A DNA stretch of 7,469 nucleotides from the IMG/VR virus record IMGVR_UViG_2541047174_000016; one strand, given 5' to 3'. This document shows positions 1-6,000 of the stretch, in pieces (the first letter of the stretch is position 1; every line of letters begins with the position of its first letter). Origin of the DNA: a virus (taxonomy: Duplodnaviria > Heunggongvirae > Uroviricota > Caudoviricetes). Position numbers: made by a program.

Positions 1-3000
1 TTTCCCTCGCGCCATTGTTGTCGCCATTTGAACAACAGATTGGCGTTAATGCCATTTTCAAGAGCAAGTTTTGAGATGGATATCCCGGGTTCACAGGAGG
101 CAGCAACGAGCTGCTGTTTAAATTCGGGAGGATAATTAGGGCAGCCTTTTCGCCTGCCGGGAGTCACATTTTTCTGCATATCTGATACTTTGGTTCCCAC
201 TACTTATTTGGTGGACACCACTTTGTCTAATTCGTCAGATTCTGACCAGACGGTTCAGGCTGTACGCTTACCGCCGGTAATGATTTCTGCCGTATGTGCC
301 TGGTTAAGCGCATCCACATAACGCTGCCCCTGTGTCAGGGCGACTTCCCGCTGTGCACTGGCATTATCCCGTTGTGCAGCTGCATGTGCCCTGGCGGCGT
401 CAGCTTCCAGTTTTGCCACTCTGCCAGCCATCTCGCGCATCTGGAGTTCTGCCTGTTGTTGCTGAAGTGCCTGTTGTTGTGCCGCTACTTCCTGTTCTTC
501 CGGCGTCATTTCATCCGGTGATTTTGGCGTCCCCAGCGCAGCACGAATACGCTCAACAAACTCCTGTTTCTGCGGCACATCCAGAAGATTAACCCACAGG
601 TCGAGCACAACAGCCTGCACCTGAGGCGGCAGCCCCTGAATAACCTCTGACATTCTCTGTGCAAGCTGTGCCTTAAACGCCGGTGTCTGCTGAACAGGCG
701 CCAGCGCAATATGTGTATTTAACCTTGAAATATCATTGGTCAGTTCACCATTATCACCTTCAGCATTGAGGACAATGGTCTGGCGACGCTGGCGATCATC
801 GCGATTAATCACCACTGCATGATTACGGCGTTTTTTCAGGTCATCGAGAAGATAAGCCAGCAACAGTCTTCCCACCTGCTGGCAGGCAAACTGGTAGTTA
901 TCGTTGATTTCCGCAAGGGTTGTGGCCCCCTGCTCCACCAGGTTACTGATAGCCACGCCTGACGTCGCACCTGAATCCTGCCCGAGAAATGCGGAATACA
1001 CTCCCATGGTATCCTGGATAAGTTTTTCCGATTCCTGCATGACCTGAAACTGCTGGCTGGCAACCTGAAAATCCTGCTCAACCCGAAAAACATCTGCGAC
1101 ACTTTTCTGATTTTTTCGGACCGGATTCAGTTTAATAATGCCATCCGGACGTTCGATCTGCTCCATCAGGTCGTTGTCTGACAACTGGGTGGCATCCTCG
1201 TCCATAATCACGCGTTTGGCCTGAAGCAACCAGGTCAGCTTGATACGACGAAAATTCACCTCATCCTGTGCCGGAATGGCGCGGGAAATTAGCCCGTATG
1301 GCTCCCCGGTTTTATCCTTTCGGTATCCCCAGAAAGGAACCAGCGGAAACATCCCCTGCGGAGCACTACAGGGGCGATCCACAATAAAGTGTGGCCCGAC
1401 AAACCAGGCTTCACGAATACGGCTTACCCGCCCGACTTTCACCTGAACCCGCCCGGATGCCACAGCTACCGCCTGCATCAGATTATTTTTATCAAAGGCC
1501 ACCACCCGTCCATTACTGAGTTCAATCACCGGAAGACGCTCGAATGTACGGTAATAAACCACCTGAAGCAGCACACGACGGCGTTCACGCTGAAGCCATT
1601 CGTTCTGCTGTCGATCCCATGACTGATACTCTTCCCATGCACTCATCAACGGACTGGGCTGGCCTTCAGTAACCGTGGTATCGACAAAACCACGCCAGTC
1701 ATCAATGGCATAATCGATAACCTGAGCCATTCCCGGGAATGTAGCTTTTGCCTCATCGGTATCCATCCAGCGGCGACGCATCAGCCATCGGCAGTCACTT
1801 AAATCAGCCTCCCGGCTCAGCCAGTCCCAGAAAACCTCATTCCGGCTGACAGTAGACACCTTAAATTCAGGCCCGAACGGATCGCTGTTTCGTCTGACCT
1901 CCACCCAACTGAGGCCCGCCTTGATTTGTTCCGCATAGGCATCAGAGCGGGCTTTATTCATATTGCCAAGGCGGCATGCATCGGCAAATTCAGCATTAAT
2001 AGCTTCAGCCAGTTTTTCAGTTTCATCATCTGGCTCGTCTGACATCACCACCAGATCAGTCCGTGTTTTGGCCTCCATTCCCAGAACGCCATCGACGGTA
2101 GGCGCGATGAGGTTATGGATAGTCATCGGCTGACCGCGATCTTTCAGTACCTGAAGAACTTCCGGTGGCAACTGATCGCCATCGTAATACGCACAGGCCT
2201 TGTTTGCGGCATCACGCCATTTAGGCTGGCTGTCAATATCAGAACAAAGCGCCTGTAACTGGCGCTGAGAAAAACGCGGCGTGGCTCCATTGTCGTTTTT
2301 CGTCGCCATGGTGTTAGTTTCATTTTTCATCAGTGAGCCATCCAGTGTGTGGTTCTGCGTTTATCCGTTTTCTGTTTTACCCTCACCGGCATTCTGGCGC
2401 GCATCTCCTGGGCAATCATGTAGCTCATGAGCTGATCATCAAAGCAGCCTTCCTGTGCATTCATGGAGCCTTTCGCGTCATAAACGTAGGTGTTCATTTC
2501 CGATAATGTGCCTGACCAGCGGATCCCTGATATTCCATTATTCAGAAGCGTTTTCATTCCTTCGGTCAGAACAGGTTTGCTCTGACGGGTTGTCAGCCAG
2601 CCAAGGCGGGGCGTATCGTCGTCATATGCCTGGTCAAGATGCTGTTCGTTGTAGATATAACGTGTCGGATAGAGTTCCCGGAGTTTCAGGATAACTGCAT
2701 GTCCGTGATTATTACGCTCCGGCCCCACAAACGCGTTGTTATACATACGACAGACCTGCGAAATGAGATGAGCAAAAAGTTCAGCATCGAGATGCCCGAA
2801 CCAGTGAGCCACCTGCTCGCCATTACTGCGTTTGACAACATCCAGCGATGAGCGGTCTCCGTGCTCCAGCCCTTCGGCAGTATCTGCCCCACAAACATAC
2901 TCTTCATCCGGATCCGGCAGTTCCCATACCAGCAGATAATTCATCAGCGTCCGCTGCAACTCGTTTTTATTTCCTTCACGCAGAGACTGAGCTTTAGTCT

Positions 3001-6000
3001 TCGCTCCTGTAACAGGTTCAATGTCATAAACAATCATCGGTGGCGAACAGAATGATTCTGCCTGCAACGTACTTTCGGCACTGAACACACGTCGTCCGGA
3101 CGTCAGAAACGCCTCCTGTGGCGTTGAGGGAAACTCCTGCTTCATTTCCTCACGCTGTTCAGTTTCCTTATTGATGTACCACTGCTTCTGTTCATCAGTA
3201 AGCGTGATGTTCATTGCCTTCTCAACCGCAGAAAAATACGTCATTTTTTCCCGTGACAGCTTCAGCCCGCTTTCCGGCACTCTGGCGCTGTATTTAGGAT
3301 CCTGCCACCAGGCGTAAAAATGGAATTTATAATCCTGTGCCGTCAGCAATAAGCCTGATGCAGTGATCTCCTGTGCTCGGTTACTCATCTCGTAAAAATC
3401 ACCACCCACGCCTTCAGCAGTGGACTCATCAAAAATAATGCATTCATCAGAGACGGCATTAAGCGTACCGGTTCGCAGTTCTTTCGCCTTAGCCGGATAT
3501 TTCGCGCAAATTTTGCCGTGCTCTGAGATATGCAGGCGCTGCACCGTACCTGAACGGAATGAGGTTGCCACCTGGATACTCGAGCCGTGACCAAACAGGA
3601 TATAGCCACCGCTGGCACCGCTACGACGTTCAACGATGGTGAATGAGGCTCTCAGCCAGTCAGGGAGATGATCAAACGGTACAGCAATTTTTGTGCGGAA
3701 AATTTCACTGGCAGCCTGTTTATCCTGAGCGACGATCCCGCATTTGAGATGCGGAATGAATAATGCCTGGTCGAGAAGATAAATATCAATGGCTGTGGAA
3801 AATCCCAGCTGGCGCGCTTTCAGGATAATATTTTTATTGTGCATGCTCCGGAACAACTGGCGCTGCGCCGGTCGCATTCTGAAGGTGACCAGTTCACCTT
3901 TTTCGTTCTGTATTTTGTAGAGATGATTGAGCCGCCACCAGGGATTGCTCAGTTTAGTCATGATGAACAGACGTTGTTCAGCCTCGGTCATTTCTGACGG
4001 CTCATCACATCGCGGTTCATTCTTCCGGAATGTCATCCAGTCTCCCCGAATTACTCATTTCATGCAGCGATGACACGATGTCACTGACAGGCGTAACAAC
4101 GCCCCGACGCTGGCTGGTCAGAATATCGGTTTCAGCTCTGAGTTTATCTCTGGCGGCGTTGATTCTTTCCCGGTCAGCACGAAGTTTTGGTGCTGTCTCA
4201 GCCAGGACGTCCAGCGTCAGCAATGAGCGTTCAATTGACTCGATACGGGCAATATTCCGGTCAAGGGCCTGTTCAGCTTTGAGTATTTTGTCGTAAAGAG
4301 CAACACGGGTTTCCACGTCAGTTGCCTCTTCCAGGTCGGCGAACATCCCTTTAAGTGCCTTAGTTACTGAAAGTGCGCGGGCCCGGGTGAACACCAGTTC
4401 ATCGAACAGCACCATGTCGGACGCATCATCCATGAGGTTATCTGCCTCAAGATACTTCGCATATCCACGGTGTCTTACGGCGTGGGTGTTTCGCTGAGAA
4501 AAAGCGTTTGAAGGTGGTAAAAGTCGGGAACCACGAATCCGTTTCGTTTCTGCCGAATTTGCGCAGTTTTTTTCAGAGTTTTTTGCGCATTTTTCATCGC
4601 CGGAACCCGCGTCATTGCAGGGTTCTTCATCTGAGATGTCATGATCGATTTCATGATCGGTTTTATGATCAATTTCATGATCGATTTTGCCCATTTTTAT
4701 ACGGGTTCTGGCGGTGTTGTAATTAATCTTTTTCTTCCGGCACCAGTCCAGTAATGTTATTCCCGTTTCGGCATGTTCGCGTCGGAATGCCTGCTCCAGC
4801 TTTTTCCAGTCCAGCTTTGCCATGTCACGTTCTGACGTCCTGTGTTAAAAACTGATGCATAATGACCGCTGTGATTTTTCAGATTTCACACAGCAGCACC
4901 ATATTTGATCGATATTTGCACAATGCGGTTGTTTTATCCGGTTTCTTCCACCACCGCACCGGACAGGCGGCTTCGCGGGAAATCGCTCCCATCTCGTGAA
5001 AAATGAGAAAACCCGGTGTGCATCGTTTTTGATTATCCCCGCACACTCCCGCAGAGAAGTTCCCCGTCAGGGCTGTGGACATAGTTAATCCGGGAATACA
5101 ATGACGATTCATCGCACCTGACATACATTAATAAATATTAACAATATGAAATTTCAACTCATTGTTTAGGGTTTGTTTAATTTTCTACACATACGATTCT
5201 GCGAACTTCAAAAAGCATCGGGAATAACACCATGAAAAAAATGCTACTCGCTACTGCGCTGGCCCTGCTTATTACAGGATGTGCTCAACAGACGTTTACT
5301 GTTCAAAACAAACCGGCAGCAGTAACACCAAAGGAAACCATCACCCACCATTTCTTCGTCTCTGGAATTGGGCAGAAGAAAACTGTCGATGCAGCCAAAA
5401 TTTGTGGCGGCACAGAAAATGTTGTTAAAACAGAAACCCAGCAAACATTCGTAAATGGATTGCTCGGTTTTATTACTTTAGGCATTTATACTCCGCTGGA
5501 AGCGCGGGTGTATTGCTCACAATAATTGCATGAGTTGCCCATCGATATGGGCAACTCTATCTGCACTGCTCATTAATATACTTCTGGGTTCCTTCCAGTT
5601 GTTTTTGCATAGTGATCAGCCTCTCTCTGAGGGTGAAATAATCCCGTTCAGCGGTGTCTGCCAGTCGGGGGCCGGTTGCATTATCCACGCGGGCGGTGCC
5701 GGTGGCTTCACGCACGGGACCTGGACAGGTGGCGTTGATCCGCAGGCTGCGGTAACCAGCGGCAACGTCAGCGCGAAGAGTTTCATTTTCAGCTCTCGCA
5801 TCGGCTAATTCCCTCGAGTATCTGGCATCAAGTGCAGCGACATCACGCTGGCGTTGCTGCATATCAGTAATTGTCGCGTTCGCCAGCTCCAGCTCACTGG
5901 CTTTTTTATCGCGCTGCTCTTTGTAGGTTATGGCGTTATCGCGGTAATGATTCAGCCCCAGACTAAGCACACCACAGGCTACCAGCAGGACAATAATCAC

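Follow-up and report, generated by a model that had tools for sequence, protein, structure and literature searches.

Genes and features of the window

The window, by which we mean the whole 7,469-nt stretch of DNA analysed here, has the minus-strand gene order S(end)-ydfR-R-Rz/Rz1, followed by bor on the opposite strand, a spacer, and terS-terL-portal. ORF calling gave the same ORF positions as a sequence-only reading of this DNA had given. The features are:

1..271, minus: terminal part of an inserted ISEc8 (IS66 family), with ~59 codons from the start of tnpA; IS/portal junction at 271/272
255..2330, minus: portal gene, P22_portal family, truncated (Pfam PF16510, E=1.1e-128)
4036..2330, minus: terL, 933W-type large terminase, 568 aa (PHROGs phrog_2, E=1.2e-53)
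4823..4017, minus: terS, 933W-type small terminase, 268 aa (PHROGs phrog_370, E=3.8e-125; phrog_51 for residues 1-55)
4824-5231: bor-terS spacer between ORFs, 408 bp
4824..4936, minus: leader of terS, confined to 933W-type phages of E. coli (only in 933W-, VT2-Sakai- and phage-86-type records)
4937..5116, minus: element X, conserved non-coding block of ~180 bp at the lysis/packaging boundary, with sharp edges in alignment
4879..5124, minus: 81-aa ORF, equal to Sp5 ORF57, annotated 'hypothetical' or 'Rz-like spanin' (PHROGs phrog_6954, E=3.7e-60)
5009-5958: full nucleotide homology to lambda (46974-46027, 92.6%, blastn)
5117..5231, plus: bor promoter region, 98-100% identical to lambda
5232..5525, plus: bor, serum-resistance outer-membrane lipoprotein (Pfam Lambda_Bor PF06291, E=1.9e-30)
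6021..5557, minus: Rz, i-spanin (Pfam Phage_lysis PF03245, E=6.1e-50)
5801..5616, minus: Rz1, o-spanin, inside Rz in another frame (Pfam PF06085, E=3.1e-22)
6029..6433, minus: two small ORFs, 43 aa and 60-86 aa, at the site of 933W ant (phrog_1115)
6511..7044, minus: R, an endolysin of the true-lysozyme kind whose N-terminus is hydrophobic (Pfam PF00959)
7095..7442, minus: ydfR-like DUF1327 gene between S and R (Pfam PF07041, E=1.8e-46)
~7444-7469, minus: final codons of S, the class II holin gene (7436-7469 matches the 933W S/R junction)

The lysis genes had been described as a lambda-type cassette. This holds for distal Rz/Rz1, which is lambda-homologous, but not for R, which is a P22-gp19-type lysozyme (34% identity to gp19, E=2.7e-15) with no blastp match to lambda R; 170 of its 177 residues are identical to 933W R. 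Rz is 70.5% identical to lambda Rz (blastp) and internally mosaic, with a sliding identity to lambda of 98-100% up to ~5690, 65-87% over 5690-5958 and none beyond. Both small ORFs also occur in a lambda-like O157 prophage (L020), whose annotations include 'YdfR family protein' and 'class II holin', and neither 933W nor phage 86 aligns by blastn over 6161-6416. The moron bor, oriented against the late operon, encodes a protein 97.9% identical to lambda Bor (blastp). Upstream of it are a sigma-70-like site at 5118-5145 (promoter scan) and a direct repeat, TGTTTAgggttTGTTTA, at 5163-5179, a pattern found once against 0 expected; with E. coli borD regulation in mind, we take this repeat to be a putative PhoP box.

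In the packaging genes, the 3' end of terS overlaps the start of terL by 20 nt, and the products match 933W L0112 and L0113 at 267 of 268 and 568 of 568 residues, respectively. The RQLG motif reported earlier is present in TerL: LKARQLGFST (residues 72-81) aligns with SRQLGKTT of T4 gp17, although the Walker-A-like KARQLGFS is missing the canonical Lys. TerL had also been called T4-gp17/P22-like. T4 and RB49 gp17 are its only PDB matches (E=1.6e-7 for T4, spanning both ATPase and nuclease parts), whereas P22 gp2 reaches only E=0.05 by blastp and Sf6 and P22 chains are absent from the PDB hits; searches of Pfam and NCBIfam gave no match. By sequence, TerL is remotely T4-gp17-like and not detectably P22-like. 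For TerS, proposed to be of the HTH type, the AlphaFold (AF2) model begins with an N-terminal unit of three short helices (pLDDT 86-88), from which a disordered linker leads to a long helical hairpin. The model is compatible with a putative HTH, but Foldseek gave no significant match.

The "large portal" of the sequence-only reading is indeed a P22_portal-family ORF, but one truncated by the IS element. It retains 686 of the 714 codons of 933W L0114, all 686 residues being identical to the 933W portal before the sequences diverge into 5 IS-derived codons. Window 1-320 is 100% identical to record L019 7001-7320, which places tnpA at 6799..7179 and labels the portal a pseudogene 'missing C-terminus'. 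On the far side of the IS the 933W homology picks up again with an 8-bp overlap, and searches of phage records found none matching window 1-271. In Sp5, DNA packaging requires the portal homologue ORF60 (PMC5155283). With its portal interrupted by the IS, the copy in the window may not package at all.

Homology breakpoints around bor and the spacer

By blastn and blastp against lambda, a lambda-homologous Rz/Rz1-bor block adjoins a non-lambda packaging module, as had been proposed. The lambda-homologous part extends from distal Rz through Rz1 and bor to 222 bp upstream of bor, where it ends at 5008/5009, inside X and within the spacer to which the join had been assigned. Lambda 1-5000 (cos-Nu1-A-W-B) has no blastn homology in the window. 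TerS, TerL and the portal have no blastp similarity to lambda Nu1, A and B (all E>1), TerL against A included. The spacer, described as AT-rich, is so in part, but its middle 180 bp is the conserved block without AT excess. The terS leader contains a small inverted repeat (4840-4849 / 4884-4893).

The swap had been placed at the bor boundary, but bor is itself an insertable moron, missing from AP000363 and many Stx2a phages, in which Rz directly adjoins X; the pan-lambdoid boundary lies 180-300 bp further on, at 4936/4937, where lambda-type and HNH-type phages part from the window. The join is not new. The suspected likeness to the 933W late region proved correct (98.6% identity, colinear over 272-6160, blastn), and one known phage is thus colinear with the supposed module swap, which is an ancient mosaic already described. 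Window 272-5630 differs from 933W by only 7 bases and TerL is identical throughout; the lysis-packaging arrangement is therefore the known 933W/Sepvirinae architecture. It is colinear with hundreds of Stx phage records, and the "join" is the standard boundary between the lysis and head-packaging modules of lambdoid phages, old and common to hundreds of Stx phages.

We read the window as coming from an E. coli prophage that is lambdoid and 933W-like (Sepvirinae), and as covering the distal part of its Q-dependent late operon, with the late and packaging scheme set out below (probability about 0.88). The stx genes and all other parts of the prophage lie outside the window, and "Stx phage" would apply to this prophage by way of its nearest relatives. 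Late transcription would run on the minus strand through the end of S, the ydfR moron, lysozyme R, the two small ORFs and Rz/Rz1, then pass antisense across the bor moron, which would have its own promoter and be expressed in lysogens, and continue via the ~180-nt X and the short leader into terS-terL-portal.

We give almost no credence to the idea that the bor/terS junction arose recently and in this genome alone. It is true that no single record among complete E. coli genomes and phage records covers the whole window, so that these collections do not contain its particular assortment of segments. However, what they lack is found away from the junction, namely the IS at 271/272, the crossover in Rz near 5690, the replacement of ant, and ydfR, while the bor-terS junction is 99.4-100% identical to >120 phage records, including 933W (1999), whose colinearity refutes a recent origin for the junction itself. 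The copy in the window is itself recombinant in Rz: it has 7 mismatches to 933W up to 5630 and 79 over 5690-6160, remaining 933W-identical to about 5630-5690 and then continuing, inside Rz, as the lysis cassette of a lambda-like O157 prophage. This switch sits in the Rz stretch common to all these phages.

The conserved block at the junction

The sole item that is possibly novel is X, a small conserved element, probably acting at the RNA level, exactly at the junction. It occurs in 424 phage records, and conserved copies are present in 4582 of 5426 E. coli genomes. Three unrelated packaging modules follow it among 143 copies (lambda-type in 91, HNH-type in 18 and 933W-type in 11), and X keeps 75-100% identity while all surrounding DNA is swapped and the flanks are wholly unrelated between phage types. 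On the late strand, pairing and covariation statistics, strand asymmetry and SCI give a structure signal, and substitutions keep pairing on that one strand only. X has no match in Rfam. These patterns suggest that X is probably a structured RNA on the late-transcript strand.

That the block is conserved because it codes for a small protein, ORF57, seems very improbable to us. The 81-aa ORF is annotated in RefSeq and PHROGs and is uninterrupted in 933W-type phages, but stops or frameshifts interrupt it in 434, 4A7 and BP-4795, any given frame stays open in at most 38 of the 87 X variants, variable sites lack codon periodicity (13/11/8), 1-nt indels occur mid-block, and half of the ORF extends beyond the conserved block. 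The Sp5 deltaORF57 mutant is absent from the list of non-viable or reduced mutants (PMC5155283). Since it simply overlies X, the ORF is unlikely to be a gene.

As to how the joins arose, we infer that homologous recombination creates and recreates them where lambdoid prophages in the same host have short patches of sequence in common; two such patches would be X and the near-identical 3'-Rz-bor block. The copy in the window, which switches inside Rz and has ISEc8 in its portal gene, would show this process still at work. For X, recombination is deduced from the points where homology stops, and illegitimate joins followed by selection could give the same pattern. Under that alternative, the Hendrix model, X would be an inherited non-coding edge marker, neither recombination substrate nor functional element. 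The sharp edges and unrelated flanks of X are what random joins trimmed by selection would leave, its single-sequence folding z-scores are unremarkable (-0.3 to -1.4), and Sp5 with 147 bp of X deleted still forms plaques (PMC5155283), X being dispensable in that respect. Yet X is retained amid replaced flanks, the lambda breakpoint within it needs a crossover inside homology, and neutral inheritance does not predict pairing-preserving substitutions on one strand. We regard illegitimate joining as unlikely, though it deserves some weight.

Packaging mode and known systems

By identity with 933W, TerS and TerL of the window would package DNA by a putative pac/headful mechanism. Unlike cos cutting by lambda Nu1/A, this would yield virion DNA with terminal redundancy, along with generalized transduction. 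Experiments show that 933W is a generalized transducer, with chromosomal markers transduced, a co-transduction limit that fits 61 kb, and terminal redundancy (PMC3752737). A 'headful (933W type)' TerL class is in use (PMC7317114, PMC6029569). Against headful packaging, a PhageTerm study labelled one 933W-like phage 'Mu-like' (PMC7946995). A cos-type module with its cos site hidden in the spacer is highly improbable: many Stx1 and Stx2c phages are cos phages, and one GenBank record notes 'cohesive ends' beside 'circularly permutated genome', but TerL is the same as that of the transducing 933W, TerS and TerL lack Nu1/A similarity, and the HNH-TerS-TerL (HK97-like) arrangement is absent. Moreover, the spacer sequence is also found in true cos phages that have their cos elsewhere, the 434 cosQ lying ~370 bp beyond X.

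In Citrobacter and Salmonella relatives, homology begins at the terS ATG and terS-terL-P22_portal stands behind unrelated lysis cassettes, which supports its being a modular packaging unit. P22 (gp3-gp2-gp1), in which pac lies inside gene 3, has the same terS-terL-portal order and portal family as the window; it differs in that its TerS is without similarity, TerL reaches only the E-value given above, and the portal is 23% identical over 251 aa (BLAST). Both P22 and 933W-type phages are headful packagers with short-tailed virions (PMC5155283). T4 gp17 (PDB 3CPE, 3EZK) is remotely similar to TerL (~20% identity), but its Walker A Lys-Thr is Phe-Ser in the window TerL, which has no match to Pfam Terminase_6.

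Lambda, Rz-Rz1-bor-(lambdap78, p79)-cos-Nu1-A-W-B, shares the gene order and antisense bor, and its Rz 3' end, bor, bor upstream region and first 108 bp of X are 98-100% identical to the window. It differs in an unrelated R, an unrelated Rz N-terminus, and cos with the Nu1/A cos-terminase downstream. VT2-Sakai (AP000363) and bor-less Stx2a phages such as P13374 of O104:H4 share terS-terL-portal, the leader and X (96% over 4600-5116), but the bor moron is absent and Rz abuts X at window 5116. The Sakai Sp5 annotation, which differs from the AP000363 record, lists a bor-like ORF56 (PMC5155283).

Stx2-converting phage 86 (AB255436) matches the window to 7467 and also has extra DNA between S and R, although its orf5/orf6 insert is longer. 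The Stx2a prophages of E. coli CEC03102, CEC08123 and NCCP 14541 match window 1-7017 and carry the identical ISEc8 portal insertion. All four keep ant, unlike the window, and none has 6161-6416. In 933W (AF125520; Sepvirinae, Traversvirus), Rz-Rz1-bor-L0112-L0113-L0114, the bor, spacer and X are the same as here; the window differs in having ISEc8 in the portal, in diverging from ~5690 in Rz, in carrying two small ORFs instead of ant, and in having ydfR between S and R.

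Gene layout and the extent of lambda homology

The lysis and packaging genes lie on the minus strand and are separated by bor, on the opposite strand, and by a spacer:

7442..7095, minus strand: DUF1327/YdfR gene (Pfam DUF1327)
7044..6511, minus strand: lysozyme gene R (Pfam Phage_lysozyme)
6433..6029, minus strand: two small ORFs, standing where the Stx phage 933W (AF125520) has ant
6021..5557, minus strand: Rz (Pfam PF03245)
5801..5616, minus strand: Rz1 (Pfam PF06085), wholly embedded in Rz in another frame
5232..5525, plus strand: bor (Pfam PF06291, Lambda_Bor, E=1.9e-30)
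4824-5231: spacer of 408 bp between bor and terS
4823..4017, minus strand: terS (PHROGs phrog_370, E=3.8e-125)
4036..2330, minus strand: terL (PHROGs phrog_2, E=1.2e-53)
2330..255, minus strand: portal ORF (Pfam P22_portal)

The ORFs, Pfam and PHROGs agree on these features, and the coordinates and gene calls of the sequence-only reading stand. Rz and Rz1, with both Pfam domains present and Rz1 lying inside Rz, form a two-component embedded spanin pair. A tRNA/tmRNA scan returned none.

That reading had described a lambda-type lysis cassette and bor fused to a non-lambda headful packaging module at the bor boundary. When we compared the window with lambda 43500-48502 and 1-5000, the sole nucleotide homology was between window 5009-5958 and lambda 46974-46027 (blastn); lambda 1-5000 and 46975-48502 gave no blastn match. 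In a sliding comparison, identity to lambda fell into three levels: 98-100% over 5009-5690, a stretch with the 3' part of Rz, bor, the region upstream of bor and the beginning of the spacer; 65-87% over 5690-5958; and background elsewhere. By blastp, identity to the lambda proteins is 97.9% for Bor, 70.5% for Rz and 68.9% for Rz1, and R shows no similarity to lambda R; R is 34% identical to P22 gp19. The term "lambda-type" therefore fits distal Rz/Rz1 and bor, and fails for R and the rest of the cassette. By eye, the N-terminus of R (residues 1-30, window 6955-7044, MNAKIRYGLSAAVLALIAAGASAPEIL) resembles a signal-anchor-release (SAR) segment; paired with a class II holin, such an R would put the cassette in the pinholin/SAR-endolysin type rather than the lambda type. 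On the packaging side, TerS, TerL and the portal show no similarity to lambda Nu1, A and B (blastp, E>1 for all pairs), as had been claimed. The same comparison, the lack of a blastn match at the cos side of lambda and the lack of Pfam Terminase_GpA all speak against a lambda cos-type terminase (Nu1/gpA).

The bor product begins with MKKMLLATALALLITGC, a lipoprotein signal with a lipobox Cys, and on this lipobox, the PF06291 match and its identity to lambda Bor it is assigned to the Bor/Iss lipoprotein family. Promoter-like elements are present upstream of bor, and its presence or absence varies among otherwise identical phages; bor with its putative promoter behaves much like a moron placed between Rz and a conserved non-coding block of the spacer, element X. 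The VT2-Sakai record AP000363 has no bor between Rz and terS. The gene list of Sp5, the Sakai Stx2 phage, has a bor-like ORF56 (ECs1217), unlike this nominally equivalent record (PMC5155283).

The spacer and element X

We searched window 4600-5400 against phage records and found several classes of match. Records of 933W type match across the whole segment, and lambda, HK629 and their relatives match from 5009 rightwards. In AP000363 and many Stx2a phages the match ends at 5116, where bor is absent and Rz abuts the spacer, and in many lambdoid phages whose packaging genes are of other kinds the match is confined to 4937-5116, at 75-81% identity. These classes divide the spacer into three parts, which an annotated ORF overlaps:

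4824-4936: 933W-type-specific terS leader
4937-5116: pan-lambdoid block of ~180 bp, element X; its late strand is the minus strand
5117-5231: bor promoter region, with a sigma-70-like site and a direct repeat
4879-5124, minus strand: 81-aa ORF (phrog_6954, Sp5 ORF57, "Rz-like spanin" or hypothetical), spanning X and the 933W-specific leader

In the bor promoter region, a perfect TGTTTA-N5-TGTTTA direct repeat lies at 5163-5179 on the plus strand, 53 bp upstream of bor (one found, none expected). We take it to resemble the PhoP box described at E. coli borD, a resemblance that would presumably suit Mg2+-responsive expression of bor homologues. Repeats in the spacer were just short pairs, probably due to chance, and a terminator scan found no intrinsic terminator there.

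The sequence-only reading had placed the join within 4824-5231, and a breakpoint is indeed present in this interval, at 5008/5009, where lambda homology ends. The lambda breakpoint is inside X, and those with other packaging types are at the edge of X. Alignments show that X has sharp edges and unrelated flanks. It occurs in 424 phage records, lambda included (about nt 46866-47046). Of 5426 complete E. coli genomes, 4582 carry it, with a median of 2 copies and up to 11, and the copies in E. coli number roughly 11,700. Among species-representative genomes it was found in Escherichia only, plus three probable contaminant contigs, and this limited range leaves no deeper phylogenetic diversity for covariation analysis. 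X invariably separates the lysis cassette from the packaging module that comes next, of whatever kind: among 143 copies, the genes downstream were of lambda Nu1/A type in 91, HNH+TerS/TerL type in 18 and 933W type in 11. Whatever its function, X is a homology patch where lysis and packaging modules meet. Its first ~100 nt also occur at 77% identity at 694 E. coli plasmid sites (for example NZ_CP073362.1 24199-24302); these segments may be remnants next to iss, the bor homologue of ColV-type plasmids.

Folding of 87 distinct variants with RNAalifold gave a long 5' hairpin, in which GUAUCGU/ACGAUAC closes UAUUCCCGCAU/GUGCGGGGAUA, a short central hairpin that has a different sequence in different variants, and a 3' hairpin, GUCC[G/U]GU-17 nt-AC[C/A/U]GGAC, with G-C to U-A covariation. 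On the late strand 98.5% of pair cells are canonical, compared to 88.3% on the opposite strand; there are 358 G·U cells, spread over 20 pairs, against 14 A·C cells, spread over 8. Double changes occur at 8 pairs, one of which passes from G-C to U-A in 23 sequences, and the covariation score was reached by 0 of 500 shuffles, in a set of sequences that are related and recombining. An alignment of 13 representatives with a mean identity of 77.5% gave the late strand a consensus energy of -38.6 kcal/mol and an SCI of 0.65, compared to -20.6 kcal/mol and 0.38 for the opposite strand; column-shuffled alignments gave -16.7±3.6 kcal/mol and 0.30±0.06. Single-sequence z-scores are weak (-0.3 to -1.4), and the window's own, lambda-type X has two mismatches in the long hairpin and a minimum-energy fold that differs from the consensus.

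How might this conservation be explained? A coding explanation is represented by the 81-aa ORF annotated across X, whose frame is broken in phages 434, 4A7 and BP-4795. Any one frame is open through X in at most 38 of the 87 variants, and variable sites of X show no codon periodicity. The "Rz-like spanin" is probably a spurious ORF and very likely a mis-annotation, judging from these sequences. Sp5 remained viable with ORF57 deleted, and this mutant does not figure among those classed as non-plaque-forming or reduced (PMC5155283); read from the published primers, the deletion removes window 5103-4957, about 82% of X. Rfam 15 gave no match to the window at E≤1 or to X in four other X-bearing loci at E≤5, and a literal search of the literature for the X core sequence gave 0 matches. 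The prophage sRNAs AsxR, AgvB, Pas and StxS are located between Q and S, not in the spacer, and were rejected as identities for X. The IS629 of phage PA8, considered as an interruption of X, sits between ant and R.

We consider that X is probably a non-essential structured RNA or single-strand element, with odds that run from near even to slightly favorable. For the narrower reading, that the late strand of X forms part of the lambdoid late transcript as a structured, cis-acting RNA not described before, or else as a processed one, we put the probability at roughly 0.45. X might serve in mRNA processing or stability, or just as a recombination "linker". Should X prove to be a genuine RNA element, it would add a new conserved feature to the lambda late operon and supply a concrete candidate for the "linker" homology, long postulated, where lambdoid modules swap.

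The packaging module

Pfam (E≤10) and NCBIfam searches of TerS and TerL gave nothing useful, and no model in either collection covers the 933W-type proteins. TerL does match the T4 gp17 structures 3EZK/3CPE at E=1.6e-7 and the RB49 nuclease 3C6A at E=0.012 (phmmer against PDB). Residues 50-153 and 372-542 align to T4 gp17, taking in both the ATPase and the nuclease segments, and this similarity across the ASCE ATPase and RNase H-like nuclease domains classifies TerL as T4 gp17-like. The sequence-only reading was correct in calling TerL T4-gp17-like, but its second label, P22-like, is not borne out by sequence: P22 gp2 is not significant (blastp, E=0.05 over 71 aa), and no P22 or Sf6 chain was found among the PDB matches at E≤10.

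The Walker-A-like motif of TerL, LKARQLGFS(T), occupies residues 72-80 (window 3796-3822), and its ARQLGFST aligns with SRQLGKTT of T4 gp17. The canonical G-K-T/S is absent, with Phe at the place of T4 Lys166. A Lys sits 6 residues before that Phe and 5 before the Gly, which to us brings to mind the "deviant" Walker A motifs. The functional 933W-type terminase family carries this Walker-A-like motif without the canonical Lys.

For TerS, an AlphaFold (AF2) model was built with 32 homologues, from Escherichia to Aeromonas. It has N-terminal helices at 6-20, 24-31 and 35-41 (pLDDT 86-88), a disordered stretch at 46-106 and a long helical hairpin at 130-238. The model had no PDB match at E≤0.001 in Foldseek, with coiled coils only, and the sequence gave only chance matches to PDB. 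A terS of the HTH plus oligomerisation helix type is plausible, and the model is compatible with it.

The same terS-terL-P22_portal unit is found in Citrobacter and Salmonella prophages, where homology to the window begins at the terS start codon. It stands there behind quite different lysis cassettes without bor, and this marks it as an exchangeable module. The homologous ORF58/59 encode the terminase of Sp5, whose portal, ORF60, is essential for packaging (PMC5155283).

By analogy with the identical enzyme described in the literature, the window prophage would package headful like 933W and not like lambda. TerL falls in the 933W TerL cluster (568/568 to L0113), a class named "headful (933W type)" in later work (PMC7317114, PMC6029569). 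933W transduces chromosomal markers over a co-transduction range that fits a 61-kb headful, and its DNA ends behaved as terminally redundant (PMC3752737). One PhageTerm study made an odd "Mu-like" call for a 933W-like phage (PMC7946995), and we found no PhageTerm-type data on Traversvirus termini in the literature. No pac site is defined there for the 933W-type family, and no stretch of the window is assignable as one. Headful packaging as in 933W implies a capability for generalized transduction, which is relevant to gene mobilisation in EHEC and has been known since 1999-2013.

Comparison with 933W and related phages

Against 50,697 phage records (megablast), 456 match the window, nearly all of them Stx-converting or related E. 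coli phages, and 86 of these cover at least 80% of it. The nearest relatives carry stx2a; non-Stx relatives also exist (PPwrbA records), and the DNA upstream of S, where stx genes would be expected, lies beyond the window. Neither the phage records nor the 5426 complete E. coli genomes contain a copy of the whole window, and this copy is itself a recent mosaic. At one end, positions 1-271 belong to the terminal part of an ISEc8 element (IS66-family) that interrupts the portal gene (junction 271/272) and removes its last 28 codons; E. coli CEC03102, CEC08123 and NCCP 14541 have the identical insertion in their Stx2a prophages. At the other end, 933W identity is lost from about 5690 rightwards (79 mismatches in 470 nt), and 5576-7469 is 95.9% identical to the S-ydfR-R-small ORFs-Rz cassette of an O157 lambda-like prophage with a Nu1/A-type terminase. 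Taken together, these point to a crossover in the Rz stretch common to 933W, lambda and the O157 prophage, with a switch zone at ~5630-5690, inside Rz/Rz1. The two small ORFs at 6029-6433 are present instead of the ant of 933W. Between S and R the window has ydfR, at a place where an insert is likewise found in phage 86 and in Qin-type cassettes.

What the sequence-only reading observed is confirmed, and its interpretation was right in substance, with the corrections already described; as stated, the finding is textbook lambdoid mosaicism. Its practical value is in annotation quality: TerS and TerL missed by Pfam and NCBIfam, a spurious spacer ORF and an IS-disrupted portal. The resemblance to the 933W late region, which that reading had pointed out, is exactly right, and the window belongs with the 933W-like Stx-phage late regions (Sepvirinae). 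933W is colinear with window 272-6160 over 5.9 kb at 98.6% identity and with no rearrangement (local blastn); there are 7 mismatches in total over 272-5630, and TerL (568/568) and TerS (267/268) are identical or nearly so to L0113 and L0112. Given this colinearity the arrangement has been public since 1999, and what the window holds is a lysis/packaging junction of 933W type, known already; novelty is accordingly low, and element X alone merits follow-up. The records of 933W and phage 86 annotate the order R-ant-Rz/Rz1-bor-terS-terL-portal, which from Rz to the portal is the order of the window.
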